From Escherichia phage Paul: a stretch of DNA of 64,000 nucleotides. The notes beneath the pieces were generated by a model that was not told where the DNA came from, searched no databases, and saw nothing but the letters and a program-made list of their open reading frames with translations. The translations under genes were made by a program, and so were the position numbers. Of the stretch, positions 31,084 through 48,292 are shown one piece after another (the first letter of the stretch is position 1; each line of letters starts with the position of its first letter). The stretch lies in the sequence record NC_070992.1; one strand, given 5' to 3'.

Positions 31084-31740
31084 TTAACTCTCCAAAGTTT
31101 TCTTCAGGGCTGCCCATGAGATTGGGTAGAGCTTAGCCATCTCTTCGTCTAGGGATTTAGCAAATACTCGAACTTCGTATTGAGCGTGAGAGGAGAGTCG
31201 CTGACGACACAACTCAAACCAGCCATACAAAGAACCAGTCCACACCCACTCAGTGATCATCCCCTGAGGTAGTACAAATCGGGCTTGCTCTGGTGCAATA
31301 AACTCAATCAACTTGTCATATGCTGCTAGAGAAGCTTCATATGCATCGTTAATTAACATTAATGCTTCAGCTCGCTCTCCGTCGATGAGCTGAACCCCTG
31401 AACCTGCATGGAGGTCCGAAGGTCTCGCAAAAATCTCTTTAGGGATGAAGACTTCAACTGCTCCATCTTTATACCGCCGGGACATTTCGTTCCACGAGAA
31501 TCCAACCTGATGCTTGCCCAGCTGTCTCGCAATTGCGATAGGTGCTTTGCATCGGAAACTGACTTGCGGGTGTCGGAATGGGGTAACATGCTTCTCTCTT
31601 GCGAGGAAGTTGATGAGACGTTCATCACGTTCATTTAAATCACCTTCACGGGTTACGCCAAAGGAAACTCGAGCTGCGTTTACTACGCTACGATCACTTC
31701 CCATAGCTTCGATTAATGTTGCTTGTAATTGTTCATTCAT
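31084..31740 (-). CDS. thyX: flavin-dependent thymidylate synthase-like protein (ThyX family) with variant signature
   Basis: AARVSF, CKAPIAIARQ, SRRY and SSHAQYE match ThyX; the canonical RHR-x8-S signature reads KHQ-x8-S. Confidence 0.7.
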   Translation of the reverse strand: MNEQLQATLIEAMGSDRSVVNAARVSFGVTREGDLNERDERLINFLAREKHVTPFRHPQVSFRCKAPIAIARQLGKHQVGFSWNEMSRRYKDGAVEVFIPKEIFARPSDLHAGSGVQLIDGERAEALMLINDAYEASLAAYDKLIEFIAPEQARFVLPQGMITEWVWTGSLYGWFELCRQRLSSHAQYEVRVFAKSLDEEMAKLYPISWAALKKTLES

Positions 31741-31755
31741 CCGTGAATTTCCTTA

Positions 31756-31965
31756 TTAATATTCCTTGATTGGGGATACCACAAAACCACCAAGAGGTGA
31801 GGTAAAAGATTTATGTAAGCTTATTTTGCTATAAATCTTTGGAGCCATCTTAAGAGCCTTCTTAAAACGACGAGCATCTTTACGAGTAGCAAAATGCTCT
31901 GTAACAGGTATAGAATGGTCTTGGTAGATACAATACATCACCGTCCAGTATTTTCCCATAATCAA
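31756..31965 (-). CDS. small-protein family A member (69 aa)
   Basis: Shares a W..V ... TR..AR..KK ... Y pattern with ORFs at 33442, 33651 and 33860. Confidence 0.4.
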   Translation of the reverse strand: MIMGKYWTVMYCIYQDHSIPVTEHFATRKDARRFKKALKMAPKIYSKISLHKSFTSPLGGFVVSPIKEY

Positions 31966-41480: not shown

Positions 41481-43511
41481 TTAACCTCTATTCAATGAAC
41501 ATTTAGGAGAATTACAATAAACTTGATTCATAGAACCAAGCGTACAACTTTCAGCATCGCGCCACGGAATCTGCTTAAAACACTCTGAGCAGTATCCGAG
41601 GGTTGACCACATGGCTTTGGTGAAGTCAGTGCTTCGGTTTCCGTCAAAGCTGACAACAGTTTTGCGGAGAGCTGTTCGTGATTCAGGAAACACACCTGCT
41701 TTCTCAGCAGGTTCCTCCTTTTTTGGCTTAGTTGAGATTGCAAAAATACTGTTGCTACGTTTCTCAACATAAGCATCAACAACATCCTCCAGAGTGATGC
41801 CTGTCTGTTTCGCTGAGGAAGGTAATACAGTCATACGACCGATCATATCTTCAGTTACACGTAAAGCAAATTCAGGACGACGGGCGTTTGTTGTATCTGT
41901 TGCTTTAATCCAGATATAACCATCTTTGATCGTAGCATTAGATACTTTCTTCTTTACTTCTACAGCGCAGACTTTACAGATATCTTCACCACGAAGACGA
42001 CTGAGTTCTTCATCAAACTCATTCTCTGTTTTAACTTCACCACAGATTTCACAAACACCAATAGGAGTCTCCTCCTCTTCTTCCTCTTTAGGTTTAGTCA
42101 AACCTTCCAGACATTCAGGATGCCAGTAGCACTGATATGCGAAGACTGCTTTAGGTGCATCCTTCCAATCAATGTGTTTGTCACAACCGCCACAATCACC
42201 ATGAGAATGTGCTTCCCAGAATTTACGAGTGATAGTAACGCCATTCTTGTTAACGAAACTATCATTCATATCAAAAGGGATATCATCATCGAAGTCAGCA
42301 GTAGTTGACTCAGGCTCCTTTTTCTCCAGAGATGGGTCAACAAAACGACCTGCTGTGATCACTAAACGAACCATAGCATTAACTTCGGAGATGCAGGATA
42401 CTGTTCCACGGTAAACAATTTTAGGGTCTTTCAGTGCATCCTGATAAGCCTTAATGTCTACGTTATGAACATCACCTTCGATATACTCTTGAGACTTCTC
42501 ATCGTAGATATAACCAATCATCTTACCACGAGAAGGAACAGCACCAGCAGTTGCATAAGGAACAAACTCATGTGGTGTGATTTCCACAGTCATGTCGCGG
42601 CGAATGTCAATGTTTCGATCGCTTGCGATTTTGTTTTGACTTACTACTGCGTTTCTTCGACGAACGTCTGCCGCTGTCACTCCCGGCTTCGTGTCGTAAG
42701 GATTGCTTGTACTGCTTTTTGAGGAACTTTGATAATTGCTTTGGCTGTAGTTGTTCGAGTAGTAACTGCCCCAACGATTGACTACCGTAAAAACCGGAAG
42801 CTCGTGGGCGACCTCTTCAACCAGTGTCATGCTATTGTTTGACATGTCAAAGATATACTCTGTACCAACTTTACATTCAAAATGCTCATCAATACGGTTC
42901 TTGTGAGACTTAGAACGCTTCAGAATCCACATCAACATATCTTCTTCAGAAGCACCAAACCAATCTCTGTTACAACGTGCGAGATGGAAAGGACGCTCTT
43001 CATTACGGATGATATGAAGGCGGTTATCAGAAGCGTCATGCCAGATTAAGGTGAAGGCACCATCCAGCTTTTGAATGGTCTCTGCTGCACCAATAGTGTT
43101 AATAGAATGGCAGATGTTCTCACTGTCTACCTCGAAGTTTTTACTGTCAGGTAACAGATCTTGGTCCATCAAGGTTCCGTTATGAACCAGAGTGATGTTA
43201 CCATGTTGGAAAGGATGGGCGTTCTTGGCGTTAACTGCACCTTTCGTTGCATGACGGCTGTGACCAACAATCCATGAAGGTGCTACAGTGTAAGCTGTTT
43301 CACCAGTGGTGTGTTTCTTGTACTCATCTTGAAGGATGAATGCGAAAGAAGGAAGTGCTTCTTTATAAGTGAAGACCTCTTTAGTGCTCTTACGCTGACC
43401 AAAGATACCAGAGGAATGCTGTCCTCGGAATACTCCAGCATAAAAGAGTTGGTTAAATACGTCTAAATCAGTGCTTGACAGATTACCGCCAGCTAATACG
43501 ATGCCACAAAT
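41481..43511 (-). CDS. class II (Ntn) glutamine amidotransferase with Cys-rich zinc-ribbon C-terminal region; apparent AUU start
   Basis: Track ORF 41481..43172 extends in frame upstream to stop-AAA-ATT-TGT; encoded N-terminus CGIVLAGG...RGQHSSGI...GHSRHATKG...HPF...HNG is a canonical Ntn amidotransferase; C-terminus has several CxxC pairs. Confidence 0.7.
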   Translation of the reverse strand: MCGIVLAGGNLSSTDLDVFNQLFYAGVFRGQHSSGIFGQRKSTKEVFTYKEALPSFAFILQDEYKKHTTGETAYTVAPSWIVGHSRHATKGAVNAKNAHPFQHGNITLVHNGTLMDQDLLPDSKNFEVDSENICHSINTIGAAETIQKLDGAFTLIWHDASDNRLHIIRNEERPFHLARCNRDWFGASEEDMLMWILKRSKSHKNRIDEHFECKVGTEYIFDMSNNSMTLVEEVAHELPVFTVVNRWGSYYSNNYSQSNYQSSSKSSTSNPYDTKPGVTAADVRRRNAVVSQNKIASDRNIDIRRDMTVEITPHEFVPYATAGAVPSRGKMIGYIYDEKSQEYIEGDVHNVDIKAYQDALKDPKIVYRGTVSCISEVNAMVRLVITAGRFVDPSLEKKEPESTTADFDDDIPFDMNDSFVNKNGVTITRKFWEAHSHGDCGGCDKHIDWKDAPKAVFAYQCYWHPECLEGLTKPKEEEEEETPIGVCEICGEVKTENEFDEELSRLRGEDICKVCAVEVKKKVSNATIKDGYIWIKATDTTNARRPEFALRVTEDMIGRMTVLPSSAKQTGITLEDVVDAYVEKRSNSIFAISTKPKKEEPAEKAGVFPESRTALRKTVVSFDGNRSTDFTKAMWSTLGYCSECFKQIPWRDAESCTLGSMNQVYCNSPKCSLNRG

Positions 43512-43590
43512 TTTCTAATCCACCTGAAGGGTAAACCCTTTCATCTAATTAACCTTTAAATTGTGCCCCTTTGCCAGAGGCACCCATTGA

Positions 43591-44694
43591 TTACAGCGCT
43601 TGCTCTAACTGATGTTCCAGATGATCTGGAATGTACCCTGTGATGTTATTATCACTGTGACCTGACTCACGAAGCAAGTCAAAAATAGCACGGATACGTT
43701 GTTCTGGTGCAGATCGTACTTGAGACAAGTCAGTTGTACGAAGCATAACCAGAATCTCTTGATATAAGTTGTTAGCGTTCCCTCGTACATATCCAAGGAA
43801 TCCATAGAAGTCTGAGATAAGACGTAAGTCAACAAGAACCTCTCCGTTGGAGTTGGTTCGACGTAAACGAATACGACCAGACTGTTCTACTTCATGAGAA
43901 CGACAATACAAAACATCACGGGCCATACAATACCCTGAATGCAAATCCGATTCGTCCAGATTGTAATCCAGAGGAAGGTAAGGAAGCATTGGGGCAAATC
44001 GTACAGTATTTAAATGCTCAATAAACTGATCATTGCTCATCTCTGCGTTATCTAAAGCCAGTTTCTTCAACATCAAGAAGCGGTTAACCAGATTGAGAAG
44101 TTGACCACGTTTCCACTTAGGCTCACTGATACGGAACTCAATTGAACCATATTGTGCAAGTGGCAGAAGGTTCAGGGATGTATACTTATCCCATGAACGA
44201 ACCAGACGATTGAAGAACTCTTCATCGTCGTAGTTAAATGCGTCAGAGGCATTCATTACCTGTGCTTGTACCACTGCAAAAGCAGGGCAGAAGTTGCTAC
44301 GGTAACGATGATAGCCTGAACACTTGAACAACATCTTTTCATAGAAGGTCCAAGCGAGAATGGTTTTCTTGAGGATATTACTATCAGCATCCCTCATATC
44401 CATATGAACGTGAGTAGAGCAACGCCAAGTCCCCTCGGCGTGCGATTCAGCTACTGCTTCACTCAGGTTGTTGATAGCGTCTAACAACTCCTGTCCGTTG
44501 TAAGGCCGTGAACATACCATTTCACAACCATTACGCAGGGAACCATCCTCTGTACAATCCCACATATCTGCTTCGATATGGTCGGAGCCTTCGAGTTCTA
44601 GTTCGATACCGACACCGCACTGAAGTGCAATTGAACTATGCGCCTCAGTTAAACGACCTTCTCGATATCCAAAAGTTTGCGCTACAGTTGTCAT
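43591..44694 (-). CDS. amidoligase (GCS2-like carboxylate-amine ligase, phage amidoligase family)
   Basis: GVGIELELEG...DGSLRNGCEMVS...STHVHMD matches the amidoligase signature. Confidence 0.65.
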   Translation of the reverse strand: MTTVAQTFGYREGRLTEAHSSIALQCGVGIELELEGSDHIEADMWDCTEDGSLRNGCEMVCSRPYNGQELLDAINNLSEAVAESHAEGTWRCSTHVHMDMRDADSNILKKTILAWTFYEKMLFKCSGYHRYRSNFCPAFAVVQAQVMNASDAFNYDDEEFFNRLVRSWDKYTSLNLLPLAQYGSIEFRISEPKWKRGQLLNLVNRFLMLKKLALDNAEMSNDQFIEHLNTVRFAPMLPYLPLDYNLDESDLHSGYCMARDVLYCRSHEVEQSGRIRLRRTNSNGEVLVDLRLISDFYGFLGYVRGNANNLYQEILVMLRTTDLSQVRSAPEQRIRAIFDLLRESGHSDNNITGYIPDHLEHQLEQAL

Positions 44695-45308
44695 AACGAA
44701 TCCACCAACGTAATATTGTAATTGCTAAGGTTTTCAGAAATGTGATGAAAGTGTTCCAGAAGTCGCATCGGTTGCTGACCGTAAGAGTCACGAGGTGCTT
44801 CCAGATCTACTTGTCCTACCAGTGCACCTTTATAGTGCACCTTACCATCCGTAGGGTTGATGTAAATATAACGAGTAACCAATCCTTCGAATTCAGGATT
44901 GAACAGACTGTAAACCATCTCTCCAGAGATAGCACGACCAACACCCGGAGCATTTCGAATCTTATTACCCATTAAGCCCTTTGCTCTCTGGCGAACAGGG
45001 TTAATATGAGTCCAGCTTACAGTGTTACCGTTATGGAACAGATAACCAACGTCAGGTGATTCAAGAATTAAGGTTGGGTCGAACACTGGAATATTCATCG
45101 TAGTGTTTCGAAGATTCCCTTGCTCATTCTTGTACCACTGCTCTACAACAAAGTACAGAGCCTGTTCTGCTTCGTGAGAGAAGTCATCACTGCGGAAGTT
45201 ACCGCTCTGCTCAACACCAATCACAAAACATGGAAGGTTGATACTACCTGCTCGTTTAGCAATCCATGTACCATTATAGTAATGAGAAAAATCAGCTACT
45301 AAGCTCAC
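44691..45308 (-). CDS. hypothetical protein (accessory cluster)
   Basis: 205-aa ORF coupled to the amidoligase gene; no motif recognised. Confidence 0.4.
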   Translation of the reverse strand: MSLVADFSHYYNGTWIAKRAGSINLPCFVIGVEQSGNFRSDDFSHEAEQALYFVVEQWYKNEQGNLRNTTMNIPVFDPTLILESPDVGYLFHNGNTVSWTHINPVRQRAKGLMGNKIRNAPGVGRAISGEMVYSLFNPEFEGLVTRYIYINPTDGKVHYKGALVGQVDLEAPRDSYGQQPMRLLEHFHHISENLSNYNITLVDSL

Positions 45309-45317
45309 GATAACCTC

Positions 45318-46124
45318 TTATGCTACCTGAAGGAGTTTGATCTGCTGGTCCGCTTCTTTAACGTTGTTGCCGTTAATGATTTCATGAAGCTTCTCAATCG
45401 GAAGGCGAGAGTGTAATGCCATCAGAGTGGACATATCGCACTGCTGAACAACCTTGTCAACCTGATCGTAAACAAACTTACGGTTTTCACGATCACTAAT
45501 CCAGAAGTTAGACAGTGAACGGTATTCAATACCATAGTCTTTATAACGGATTGCAGATGCTTTGCCATAGAGTTCTTTACGGCGAGTATCTTTGTCCATA
45601 ATAACTGCTGGAAGTGACAGGAAGTAATCACACAGCACACCCAACATCATCTGAGTTTGCAGAGTGATATCCAAAGCACCAACCACACCAAGATGTACGT
45701 GACCACCGGCAGTACGAAGTCCCTTATTCTGAGAAGTCGGGGATGGATTCTTCTGACCAGTGAAGGCGTTGAAATCAGGAGTGCACCCGAAGATGAACGC
45801 TGATTCGTTGAAAGTTTTCATCTCTTCTTCAGTGAAGATGTGAGAGCTAACACCCGGAGCAGTTTCCATGTCCAGTTTGTTCAGGACATTATTGGTGAGA
45901 TCGATACCACGTTGCATGTTATCGTTAAACGCTTCAAAACCGCTCTGTGGGTCAATATCAAACTCAGCCAGTACGTTGTCCTCTTGAAGACGAACATCCT
46001 TAGCCAGGGTGATCTTATCGTCCTTAGAACAGCCTAACAGACCAGCCACAGAAGTGATGATGCCATTGCTGGTACGAACAAACATTTCAGGATCAGAGCC
46101 GATAAGGAATTTGCGCTTAGTCAT
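45318..46124 (-). CDS. hypothetical protein (accessory cluster)
   Basis: 268 aa; KFLIGSDPEMFV and GGHVHLGV are faintly reminiscent of a second divergent amidoligase; not assignable by eye. Confidence 0.4.
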   Translation of the reverse strand: MTKRKFLIGSDPEMFVRTSNGIITSVAGLLGCSKDDKITLAKDVRLQEDNVLAEFDIDPQSGFEAFNDNMQRGIDLTNNVLNKLDMETAPGVSSHIFTEEEMKTFNESAFIFGCTPDFNAFTGQKNPSPTSQNKGLRTAGGHVHLGVVGALDITLQTQMMLGVLCDYFLSLPAVIMDKDTRRKELYGKASAIRYKDYGIEYRSLSNFWISDRENRKFVYDQVDKVVQQCDMSTLMALHSRLPIEKLHEIINGNNVKEADQQIKLLQVA

Positions 46125-47088
46125 TGTAATACTCCACTAGTTCAGAAAAGAGAGATGAGATTGTGTTACCAACTTCTTCAGTAGTAAGGCCAGAACTTGG
46201 GCCAGTACGTTGAATTAGTCGGGCTGTAAAGTTTTGTACTATAATGTTTTCCAACTTATTGTCTATTGCTTCACGTTTGTGACCATGACAGTTGGACCAG
46301 AGTCTTAACCACTCTGACATTGTTTCATACTCGTCCGGGTCTTGATCTTTAGCACGAGCAAATCTTCGTAAGGCATCTTGGTTATGGTTGCGAACATAAC
46401 CGTCCTTGTTGTCACCAACACCGAAGGGGTTTTGAACCCATACTTGTTTCGTGTATTCATCAGAGTCTACAACCAAAGGAAGGAATGCTGCTGCTGACAT
46501 ATTGTTGTTAACAACAATAGAGGTGCTCTCGCTACTCCCATTGGCTCTTCCTCGTTGAGACCACCCACCGAAGAAGTCACGACCCAACCCAGCTAACACT
46601 AGAGCGATTCCGATGCGTTTACGCTTCAGCCACTCTTCCCTGTCTTCAATTCCTTCTGCTAGGAAATCCATTCCACGATACTGCCCTTCCAGAATACTGC
46701 GGAAAAGCATAAGTCCTGTGAAGATTTGATCTGCTGGATGCTCACGGAGGTTGACAGCAACACTATTCGCTGAAGTGATCGTAAATACATCACGATAGCA
46801 AGACATAGAGTTCATAATGTCTGCTGTTTCAACCAAGTTCTTTTCAATATCAGATGAAACATGACCGTGAAAAGAGTGAGTCCAGTAATTCAACATCTCC
46901 AGTTGCAAGTTGATATCACGGTTGAAACGTCTATAACGTCCTTCTTCCGTGATAACTTCGCCATCAATATCATTTACGCATTGGCCTTGCATGTAGTTGT
47001 GAATACCGAAGCACCCACGACCTAAGAACTTCTGTTCCCCTAAATCTTGTTGAAGATTCAGAGGTACGATCGTTGTGGAGATTGACAT
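46117..47088 (-). CDS. hypothetical protein (accessory cluster)
   Basis: 323-aa ORF; no recognised motif. Confidence 0.4.
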   Translation of the reverse strand: MSISTTIVPLNLQQDLGEQKFLGRGCFGIHNYMQGQCVNDIDGEVITEEGRYRRFNRDINLQLEMLNYWTHSFHGHVSSDIEKNLVETADIMNSMSCYRDVFTITSANSVAVNLREHPADQIFTGLMLFRSILEGQYRGMDFLAEGIEDREEWLKRKRIGIALVLAGLGRDFFGGWSQRGRANGSSESTSIVVNNNMSAAAFLPLVVDSDEYTKQVWVQNPFGVGDNKDGYVRNHNQDALRRFARAKDQDPDEYETMSEWLRLWSNCHGHKREAIDNKLENIIVQNFTARLIQRTGPSSGLTTEEVGNTISSLFSELVEYYND

Positions 47089-47098
47089 AACTAACCTT

Positions 47099-48292
47099 TT
47101 ATTTTCCTAAAAATAATCCGCTCATAACACCATCCCACTCAGAGGATGGAATCACTGAATACTCCGAACTTTGGTCCAGAATCCCACTACTAAATCGCTG
47201 AACAATGTTGTAGATGTTGAACAGGTCTTTAGCCTCGGCACGAATGCCGTAGATTAGCCTGTTAGCTGTTTTCTCATTTTTAGACACGCGACGGGTAAAG
47301 TTAACCAAAAGATTGTCACCTTTAAGTATCTCTGACCCATCTTTTACTAGATCGGGGTGCATCACTGGCAAGAACATTGAGTTGTTAACTCGCAATTCTG
47401 CTGTTTCATCGTTCTCATAATGAATCCACTTAAAGTCTTCATCACGGAAGTGACCACATCCATCTCTGTACGACTGCTGACGCCAAGGCACTTGAAATGC
47501 TTCAGCGTATTTATCAGCCATACCTACTGTAAACAGCGACGCTGGGAAGATACAAGCATCCCAATCATTACCAACCAGAGTTGCTTTCGTTTCGCCCAAG
47601 AGGTTAGTGTAAGTGCTAACCATTCGTGAGTAAACATAAGCCTGAAGGATTGTCCAGCCTTCAACCAACCATTTATGAAGGAAGGTTTCAACTTGACTCT
47701 CTTCATCTTCGCAATAGAAGGTTCGATCTAACATCAAATAGAACAGACAACGATCAGCAGGAACATTCTCAGTTGCTACCCCCATAAAACCTTTCTCGTG
47801 CCAGCGTAAACAGGAGGGACGATCTTTGTCCACAAATGCTTCCATAGCTTCCAGTACAGCACGAGGTGTGGTTCGATGCTCAGGGTTTTTGTCATTCCAA
47901 CGTTCAATGTTGTTTTTAAGCTCGCCTTCGTAATCAATAGCACCCCAACCTAAAGCTGCGGATACAGGTTTTTCATCACGCCAACGTCTAAAACCTAACA
48001 TCTTCATGTGAGTTCCGGAGTTCCAGATATGCTTGATTTTACACATATCCATTTCTCGACTTAACAGGAACTCTTCCCCATCAGCACTACGAACGTTAGC
48101 TTCTTCATGCCACACTCGAACGTGCATATTCCACCCATGAGTTGCCTCATACATGTTAGGGTCGAAGTATTCATCTTCGTCATCATCCTCATCAACGCCA
48201 CCGTTATAGTTGCGAAGCTGAAGGAACCCATAACAAGGAGGGTTGACCGTTAAAACATTACCTTCAGTATCTTCTAATGTTACTGGAAACAT
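47099..48292 (-). CDS. hypothetical protein (accessory cluster)
   Basis: 397-aa ORF; acidic stretch DEDDDEDE; no recognised motif. Confidence 0.4.
   Translation of the reverse strand: MFPVTLEDTEGNVLTVNPPCYGFLQLRNYNGGVDEDDDEDEYFDPNMYEATHGWNMHVRVWHEEANVRSADGEEFLLSREMDMCKIKHIWNSGTHMKMLGFRRWRDEKPVSAALGWGAIDYEGELKNNIERWNDKNPEHRTTPRAVLEAMEAFVDKDRPSCLRWHEKGFMGVATENVPADRCLFYLMLDRTFYCEDEESQVETFLHKWLVEGWTILQAYVYSRMVSTYTNLLGETKATLVGNDWDACIFPASLFTVGMADKYAEAFQVPWRQQSYRDGCGHFRDEDFKWIHYENDETAELRVNNSMFLPVMHPDLVKDGSEILKGDNLLVNFTRRVSKNEKTANRLIYGIRAEAKDLFNIYNIVQRFSSGILDQSSEYSVIPSSEWDGVMSGLFLGK

Follow-up and report, generated by a model that had tools for sequence, protein, structure and literature searches.

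A ThyX homolog of Escherichia phage Paul with KHQ in place of the RHR motif, and the large ThyX subfamily to which it appears to belong

Our question was what to make of a gene of Escherichia phage Paul that looks like a flavin-dependent thymidylate synthase (ThyX) and does not carry the motif by which that family is usually recognised. The motif RHR-x7-8-S has been used to define and even to filter ThyX sequences (e.g. PMC2826268). In the phage protein the corresponding stretch reads KHQ-x8-S, and the initial annotation took this as a hint of an altered substrate or chemistry, or of inactivity, with a possible link to a neighbouring cluster of amide ligases. We analysed the gene in the window, by which we mean the whole stretch of 64,000 nucleotides from record NC_070992.1; the window has a GC content of 41.9% and, judging by its sequence, is a Kuravirus (phiEco32-like, Gordonclarkvirinae) genome. 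The reading that we consider quite probable is that the gene encodes an ordinary flavoenzyme converting dUMP to dTMP, a member of a large subfamily in which the phosphate/flavin-binding site would be rebuilt and for which the literal RHR motif fails.

An AAGGA ribosome-binding site lies about 9 nt 5' of the thyX ATG. The encoded protein matches the Pfam profile PF02511 (Thy1) with an E-value of 1.8e-43 and 149 bits (cut-off 24.8) over 190 of the 191 profile positions, it matches the TIGR02170 thyX equivalog with 129.2 bits (cut-off 87.9), and it also matches the PHROG thymidylate synthase families. Its best solved relatives, found with phmmer against the PDB, are the ThyX of T. thermophilus and that of T. 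maritima (Tm). With the canonical enzymes used for comparison (T. maritima TM0449, T. thermophilus Thy1, PBCV-1 A674R and M. tuberculosis, or Mtb, Rv2754c) it shares the Pfam/TIGRFAM family and the fold at 32-34% identity. The AF2 model, which is that of a monomer without ligands, has a pLDDT of 94.7 and a pTM of 0.88, and the top 50 Foldseek matches to this model are all ThyX, with a TM of 0.80-0.81 to the T. maritima enzyme. The ThyX homology that had been read from the stretches AARVSF, KAPIAIARQ, SRRY and SHAQYE, all of which are present, is thus borne out by Pfam, TIGR02170, phmmer and Foldseek alike. Profile and fold together place the protein in the Thy1/ThyX family, the function of which we infer for it. 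Among close relatives, the annotated ThyX of Escherichia phages KM01 and EK5 has 100% amino acid identity to it and phi32_64 of phiEco32 is 98.6% identical. The dN/dS of the gene is 0.045 relative to phiEco32; with a Salmonella phage gene of 75% identity, a comparison in which dS is saturated, it is 0.058.

Both the codons and the alignment confirm that RHR has been replaced by KHQ (Table 1). In the phmmer alignment to T. maritima ThyX, K76, H77 and Q78 fall on R78, H79 and R80, S87 falls on S88 and R89-Y90 falls on R90-Y91, with one residue inserted in between. This one-residue insertion, together with a near-invariant Gly after the motif, distinguishes the phage protein from canonical ThyX; the KHQ-x8-S spacing is within the published RHR-x7-8-S range. 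A true RHR motif elsewhere was looked for, and since there is no R-H-R tripeptide elsewhere in the phage protein the observation stands: what remains of the literal signature R-H-R-x(7-8)-S is its His, its spacing and its Ser. The likeness to canonical ThyX goes further than these, and includes the catalytic-loop Ser and the Arg-Tyr pair. The equivalents of Tm H53, R74, Q75, E86, S88, R90, Y91, R147 and R174 are all present (H51, R72, Q73, E85, S87, R89, Y90, R154 and R181), and so is that of Tm S30; Tm R147 we take to be a dUMP-phosphate ligand in the T. maritima structures. Where the phage protein differs from the canonical enzymes, in Tm numbering, is in R78 to K and R80 to Q within the motif, and in E58 to R (R56), G89 to R (R88) and R165 to Y (Y172) outside of it.

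Table 1. Features of the thyX locus, in window coordinates
Feature	Coordinates	Strand	Basis or remark
thyX, flavin-dependent thymidylate synthase homolog, 218 aa	31084..31740	(-)	Corresponds to phi32_64 of phiEco32
K76-H77-Q78, in place of canonical R-H-R (T. maritima R78-H79-R80)	31507..31515	(-)	Read from the sequence and from alignment to solved ThyX; 31515..31507 is AAG CAT CAG, followed by V-G-F-S-W-N-E-M and S87
S87-R88-R89-Y90: catalytic-loop Ser, subfamily extra Arg (Tm G89 position), conserved dUMP-binding Arg, Tyr lid	31471..31482	(-)	Sequence; 31482..31471 is TCC CGG CGG TAT
R56, position of Tm E58 (invariant Glu in canonical ThyX)	31573..31575	(-)	Alignment
Y172, position of Tm R165 / Mtb R190 (neighbouring-subunit FAD-phosphate-binding Arg)	31225..31227	(-)	Alignment
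R181, equivalent of Tm R174 / Mtb R199, conserved dUMP-contacting Arg, kept	31198..31200	(-)	Invariant in 150/150 subfamily and 120/120 canonical sequences
R154, equivalent of Tm R147, family-invariant Arg, kept	31279..31281	(-)	Invariant in 150/150 subfamily and 120/120 canonical sequences
Thioredoxin-like protein, 90 aa, C-A-P-C motif	31962..32234	(-)	phi32_65 annotated thiol-disulfide isomerase/thioredoxin; one small ORF upstream of thyX
dCTP deaminase	34261..34794	(-)	Pfam PF22769 DCD, E=3.6e-34; phi32_72 annotated dCTP deaminase

The ThyX structures indicate what is at stake in these changes. In the T. maritima enzyme both RHR arginines hydrogen-bond dUMP (PMC3498832), in agreement with the nucleotide contact that the initial annotation had ascribed to them, and a structural review adds that the RHR residues form hydrogen bonds with FAD, at its AMP phosphate, FMN phosphate and ribityl, and that the first Arg contacts both the isoalloxazine and dUMP (PMC6514825). 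The two arginines sit at the junction of the nucleotide and FAD phosphates. The same groups of FAD are bound by two residues that the neighbouring subunit contributes, Mtb S71 and R190 (Tm T55 and R165), and in H. pylori (Hp) ThyX R165 is the equivalent of Mtb R190 in FAD-phosphate binding (PMC6514825). Among these canonical FAD-phosphate ligands the phage protein has Q78 and Y172 instead of both arginines and keeps T53 (Tm T55, Mtb S71). On the side of the nucleotide, the residue equivalent to Mtb R199 is among the conserved dUMP-stabilising residues, and neither R181, S87 and R89 nor Y90, the lid that covers the reactive positions, has changed, which makes a cytosine substrate unlikely (PMC6514825). 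A dCMP substrate was rejected on the same ground, since none of the conserved contacts to dUMP is lost.

KHQ is invariant in all 120 of the closest homologs, from 92% down to 54% identity, that were retrieved from a collection of 5.8 billion proteins. Because of this invariance, and because dN/dS is about 0.05, we take the motif to be neither chance nor decay. Both facts also weigh against the idea of a ThyX without catalytic activity, a remnant left by decay or kept for regulation, for which one could point to the failed family signature and to the RHR residues of M. tuberculosis ThyX, which are said to be essential by mutagenesis (reportedly the work of Ulmer in 2008); on that basis one would expect harm from a plain R-to-Q change unless something compensated for it. 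Given in addition the full length and confident fold of the protein, its otherwise intact active site, and the hundreds of diverged clusters that have the same pattern, bacterial chromosomal genes included, we regard a dead remnant as extremely improbable.

The pattern is widespread. An HMMER search of 1.84 billion cluster representatives gave 6912 ThyX-like clusters (50% identity), and the nearest 150 of these, aligned to T. maritima numbering, make up the subfamily set. The third Arg is absent in 146 of these 150 nearest clusters, and because they fail the literal RHR motif just as the phage protein does, we judge that motif to be too narrow for the homologous family. At Tm 78 the 150 representatives have K in 119 and R in 29 cases, at Tm 79 they have H in 131 and S in 16, and at Tm 80 they have Q in 86, T in 18, K in 16, V in 6, H in 6 and others, with R in only 4. 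Conservation in the same set is 95-100% for Tm S30, H53, Q75, E86, S88, R90, Y91, R147 and R174, and 89% for Tm R74. By these alignments KHQ marks a large ThyX subfamily with the pattern K/R-H-x-x-G ... E-x-S-R-R-Y, most of whose members are viral and some of them cellular. This subfamily is without a description in the literature that we searched, and no assayed KHQ/SRRY member was found there.

The changes at the other positions go together with the loss of the third Arg. The canonical set consisted of 120 RHR ThyX, collected with a profile made from T. maritima and six RHR-type phage proteins. RHR is found in all 120 of these, and so is the Glu at Tm 58, which is present in one of the 150 subfamily sequences. 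Arg at Tm 165 is found in 100 of the canonical and none of the subfamily sequences, whereas Arg at Tm 89, directly after the catalytic-loop Ser, is found in 15 of the canonical and 142 of the subfamily sequences. At the position of Tm N169 an Arg is present in 93 of the 150 and in none of the 120; unlike most of the subfamily, the protein of Escherichia phage Paul has E176 there and places an Arg, R179, at Tm N172. When the 270 sequences are split by the third Arg, Arg-89 is present in 19 and absent in 105 of the 124 that have it, and present in 138 and absent in 8 of the 146 that do not (Fisher 2e-44, a value in which shared ancestry is uncorrected and which is hence a description and not a probability). 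E58 is kept in 121 of the 124 against one of the 146, and R165 in 101 of the 124 against none of the 146. The phage proteins that can be named divide in the same way, with S-[GQA]-R-Y in six of six RHR-type ThyX (L5, phiYS40, PAJD-1, S-CAM9, RcMrWorf and Alvy) and S-R-R-Y in seven of seven of the non-RHR type.

We propose that the subfamily has rebuilt the charged cluster by which the phosphate of dUMP and the pyrophosphate of FAD are clamped. The first Arg is retained as Lys, the third Arg has been lost jointly with Tm E58 and Tm R165, a new Arg has been gained right after the catalytic-loop Ser (R88 here), and usually a second one stands about one helical turn away from where R165 was (R179 in Escherichia phage Paul). 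R88 seems well placed to stand in for the lost third Arg, which fits the covariation; in PBCV-1 ThyX the side chain of residue 89, a Gln, can fill the dUMP phosphate pocket (PMC3498832). This compensating role is a presumed one, as are the tetramer, the cofactor and the product of the phage enzyme.

With three residues of the flavin/phosphate site changed at once, cofactor binding may differ. It is conceivable, though we hold it only tentatively, that the enzyme does make dTMP and has changed its cofactor handling, with FMN or a loosely held, exchangeable flavin taking the place of tightly bound FAD, or with another reductant. This would refine the reading as an ordinary thymidylate synthase. 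The three positions change together, two of them, the third Arg and Mtb R190 (Tm R165), bind the FAD phosphate and ribityl (PMC6514825), the third is the invariant E58, and the new arginines stand at different places. However, the flavin and folate sites retain T55 (as S/T) and H53, and the lost Arg also binds dUMP, so that Arg-89 may merely restore binding of the dUMP phosphate.

The distribution of the signature helps to narrow down what the enzyme could be doing. Searching 185,579 species genomes with two peptide patterns of the subfamily (12-sequence alignment) yielded 120 confirmed loci. The KHQ/KHK ThyX of other phages and of bacteria have [KR]-H-[QK]-x-G ... E-x-S-R-R-Y in common with the query at 36-55% identity, and differ from Escherichia phage Paul in virus family and host: KHQ occurs in the Chaseviridae phages flopper and Faunus, and KHK in Barbavirus and in the N4-like Klebsiella phage GADU21 (Schitoviridae). 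In phages these genes adjoin those for primase/helicase, DNA polymerase, glutaredoxin or ribonucleotide reductase. A K-Y-x branch, found in SP-15 (gp9; a Bacillus phage), in Andromedavirus, in Streptomyces phage MulchMansion and in the chromosomes of Fusibacter and Ezakiella, is like the query in its S-R-R-Y and in the loss of the third Arg and belongs to the same wider subfamily, but its motif His has become Tyr, where the query retains His, and 6-40 residues are inserted after the motif.

Cellular members are found in several bacterial groups. The Spirochaetia chromosome OZ251568.1 (1.79 Mb) encodes a KHQ/SRRY ThyX that is 47% identical to the query, with citrate synthase and oxidoreductases on one side and pyrD, a pyrF-pyrE fusion, pyrB (that is, dihydroorotate dehydrogenase, an OMP-decarboxylase/phosphoribosyltransferase fusion and aspartate carbamoyltransferase) and an amidohydrolase on the other; the upstream gene order and ORF sizes match in a second genome, a Spirochaetaceae MAG. 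On Chloroflexota and Poribacteria contigs of 30-145 kb thyX lies amid genes for 2-oxoacid dehydrogenase, an MFS transporter, the enolase superfamily and an aminotransferase. The K-Y-I branch has chromosomal members among the Clostridia: in Fusibacter and Ezakiella its gene is found next to those for endonuclease III, CdaA and oligopeptidase F. These settings are not prophage, and in the 12-kb loci that were read a ThyX homolog beside pyrimidine-biosynthesis genes would most simply be the thymidylate synthase of the cell.

The surroundings of the gene in Kuravirus are those of DNA replication. In phiEco32, phi32_64 lies in the early/replication arm, with thioredoxin-like and Dps-like genes just upstream, a small ligase-annotated ORF and phoH downstream, and dCTP deaminase, 'nucleotidyltransferase', exonuclease and primase/helicase 2.5-7 kb upstream. 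The amidoligase, ATP-grasp, GATase and GGACT cluster is at 38713-48292 of the window, which is 7-16 kb from thyX and beyond the replication module; in ten neighbours searched against Pfam, the only domains recognised were DCD, GGACT, ATP-grasp-like, GATase, Amidoligase_2 and COOH-NH2_lig. In the Chaseviridae phage flopper the gene for KHQ-ThyX adjoins primase/helicase and DNA polymerase, with no amidoligase gene within 3 kb on either side, and for this reason we associate thyX with the replication genes and not with the amidoligase cluster. The link to amide ligases that had been suggested therefore finds no support.

The proposal that would give the motif the widest consequences is that the product of the KHQ enzyme is not dTMP but, say, 5-hydroxymethyl-dUMP or a pyrimidine with another C5 substituent, or that the enzyme uses UMP or dCMP, and that its product feeds a modification of Kuravirus DNA, possibly elaborated by the amidoligases, which would explain restriction resistance. 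Gordonclarkvirinae are reported to show a remarkable resistance to restriction-modification systems although no modification pathway is known for them (PMC11990801). In the window CCWGG, BamHI, PstI, SacI and KpnI sites are depleted and those of EcoRV, HindIII, HpaI and EcoKI are not; there are 25 sites for EcoRV, 35 for HindIII, 9 for EcoKI and 7 for EcoRI. We thus rejected site avoidance as a general cause of the resistance, which says nothing direct about ThyX, although the EcoRV and EcoRI sites that remain keep the proposal of a modified base in play. The altered residues do contact the flavin and the phosphate of the nucleotide, 5-hmdUMP can be trapped with acid as an intermediate in ThyX catalysis (PMC3498832), and a hydroxymethylase role for one of the two Thy1 homologs of SP-15 was put forward as a speculation when its genome was published (PMC5977210). 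On the other hand, the signature is specific neither to Kuravirus nor to phages, being found in the unrelated Chaseviridae, Schitoviridae and Barbavirus and, beside pyrimidine-biosynthesis and housekeeping genes, in bacterial chromosomes; the residues that hold dUMP and the lid above it are unchanged; and a whole replication module stands between the amidoligase genes and thyX. Restriction profiling and sub-cloning served to map the termini of phiEco32 (PMC9965538), and virion DNA can therefore be cut and cloned.

The annotated gene content of phiEco32 points in the same direction. In the 40.6-kb stretch that we examined phi32_64 is the only annotated thymidylate synthase, a dCTP deaminase and a dNMP kinase are annotated as well, and no enzyme that destroys dTTP or dTMP is. 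All in all we find a product or substrate of this different kind unlikely. As to the 5-hmdU thymidine hypermodification route of Weigele and co-workers (PMC8989533), its components, a ThyA-type dUMP hydroxymethylase, a 5-hmdU DNA kinase and aGPT-Pplase-type transferases, are not among the annotated genes of that 40.6-kb stretch. The restriction resistance leaves a small residual possibility of unusual pyrimidine chemistry. A more specific version, in which the subfamily handles the flavin or the exocyclic-methylene intermediate differently and in Gordonclarkvirinae yields, perhaps among other products, a non-methyl C5-substituted deoxyuridylate that enters the DNA and underlies the resistance, seems to us very unlikely.

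Two characterised proteins were considered as precedents. PolB of polyoxin biosynthesis (PDB 4P5A) is a Thy1-family protein whose function has shifted to that of a UMP/dUMP C5-methylase, a case of neofunctionalisation, and this ThyX paralog has a relaxed substrate specificity (PMC5954106) that could be brought in favour of an unusual substrate here as well. It is, however, only the 14th distinct PDB match of the phage protein (E=1.4e-16 versus 2.4e-31 for true ThyX). With this weak similarity, and with a context of phage replication and nucleotide metabolism without a nucleoside-antibiotic cluster, a PolB-like UMP C5-methylase was rejected. The D29/L5 mycobacteriophage ThyX has been reported to be active (PMC6999906), and this gp48 type is the only activity-reported phage ThyX that we checked. 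It has canonical RHR, and L5 gp48, with RHR and SQRY, was rejected as a characterised precedent for the variant motif.

Deoxyuracil DNA has also been proposed for these phages, from the dCTP deaminase and the nucleotidyltransferase, in passages that make no mention of ThyX (PMC11990801). The presence of a strongly conserved ThyX in every Kuravirus argues against a genome with deoxyuridine in place of thymidine, since a thymidylate synthase is under strong purifying selection there, although such selection by itself would also fit an enzyme with another C5 product. The suggestion of an altered substrate or chemistry, or of inactivity, found no support, as the signature is conserved and selected, the compensating changes are correlated with it, the uracil-reading and catalytic residues are kept and there are members in bacterial chromosomes; we consider it unlikely.

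As an ordinary thymidylate synthase the phage enzyme would fit the economy of the infected cell. The route to dTMP in E. coli runs from dCTP to dUTP, dUMP and then dTMP, and E. coli has a GC content of about 51%. Phage ThyX would act with the phage dCTP deaminase, which presumably feeds the dUMP pool, and with the dNMP kinase annotated in phiEco32, and the host Dut would presumably turn dUTP into dUMP as it does in the pathway of E. coli itself. In this way the phage Dcd and ThyX may amplify the dTMP route of the host for the extra thymidine of an AT-rich genome, and push the pyrimidine pool of a 51% GC host toward the thymidine required by a 42% GC phage.

For the phage, the oddity of the motif is no evidence of exotic DNA chemistry, and the gene most probably encodes the thymidylate synthase that its annotation names. 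It is not a new kind of system; it is relevant to the restriction resistance of Gordonclarkvirinae, the cause of which ThyX leaves unexplained. For the family, the textbook RHR signature is not universal, as a large subfamily has given up its third Arg, gained one beside the catalytic Ser and, as we propose, rebuilt its flavin-phosphate site. This subfamily matters for annotation filters, for mechanistic work and for the design of ThyX inhibitors that are aimed at the nucleotide pocket.

The motif that sets this ThyX subfamily apart, K-H-Q-type in place of R-H-R, is not the furthest departure from the canonical form. In another branch the histidine is replaced as well, giving K-Y-R/V/I/T, and an insertion of 6-40 residues precedes W-N-E-S-S-R-R-Y. 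The branch (loci L008, L009, L091 and L060-L089) is carried by Bacillus phage SP-15 as gp9, by Andromedavirus and by Streptomyces phages, and Fusibacter, Ezakiella and some Bacillaceae have it on the chromosome. The thymine of SP-15 is hypermodified.

Inteins or homing-endonuclease insertions are already known in mycobacteriophage ThyX. Several representatives of the present subfamily from the profile search (P0122, P0135, P0157, P0186 and others) have lengths of 350-640 aa and align with the phage Paul protein in two or three separate stretches, and in Vibrio phage pVa5 an annotated HNH endonuclease interrupts the thyX match. Together these suggest inteins or homing-endonuclease insertions inside thyX in the long representatives and in pVa5. 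A ThyX fragment with 69% identity to the Kuravirus protein is encoded on a 526-bp scaffold (scaffold796, L010) of Herbiconiux daphne. The assembly is that of an actinobacterial isolate, and the likeliest source of the fragment is phage or contaminant DNA, not a Herbiconiux gene.

The thyX, thioredoxin and Dps-like block is flanked by four small paralogous ORFs, annotated in phiEco32 as hypothetical proteins, which all have W7, the core T-R-x-x-A-R-x-x-K and a tyrosine at the C terminus; the other members are 26-29% identical to ORF 1. Counted from its first ATG, the small Cys-rich ORF that lies downstream shares 34 nt with the 3' end of thyX; the annotated start of its phiEco32 equivalent, phi32_63, is the thyX stop codon. 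The 466-aa ORF is annotated in phiEco32 as a 'nucleotidyltransferase' and had no Pfam match at E<=0.001.

Coordinates of the features named here (phage Paul window except the first row)
Feature	Position	Strand	Remark
SP-15 gp9, K-Y-x ThyX	L008 2932-3768		
Cys-rich ORF, 55 aa	30950-31117	-	four C-x-x-C-like pairs
Small paralogous ORF 1	31756-31965	-	65-69 aa family
Small paralogous ORF 2	33442-33651	-	65-69 aa family
Small paralogous ORF 3	33651-33860	-	65-69 aa family
Small paralogous ORF 4	33860-34057	-	65-69 aa family
dCTP deaminase	34261-34794	-	touched by the deoxyuridine question with thyX (31084-31740)
466-aa ORF	34807-36207	-	between dCTP deaminase and exonuclease

Over the whole window (1-64000), with expectations taken as simple mononucleotide products of base composition rather than from Markov models, some restriction and methylation sites show strong depletion. 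For CCWGG the count is 8, where about 143 would be expected. BamHI, PstI and SacI have no sites, KpnI has one and ClaI three, against 10-20 expected. There is no depletion for EcoRV (25 sites), HindIII (35), HpaI (33) or EcoKI (9), and GAAGA/TCTTC is enriched about 3-fold (348 against 117).

In treating the restriction resistance of Gordonclarkvirinae, the BASEL authors name the 'nucleotidyltransferase' as a possible DNA-modification gene and suggest deoxyuridine in place of thymidine (PMC11990801). ThyX, however, is kept in all Kuravirus relatives examined, where purifying selection on it is strong, and this speaks against deoxyuridine DNA in this group.
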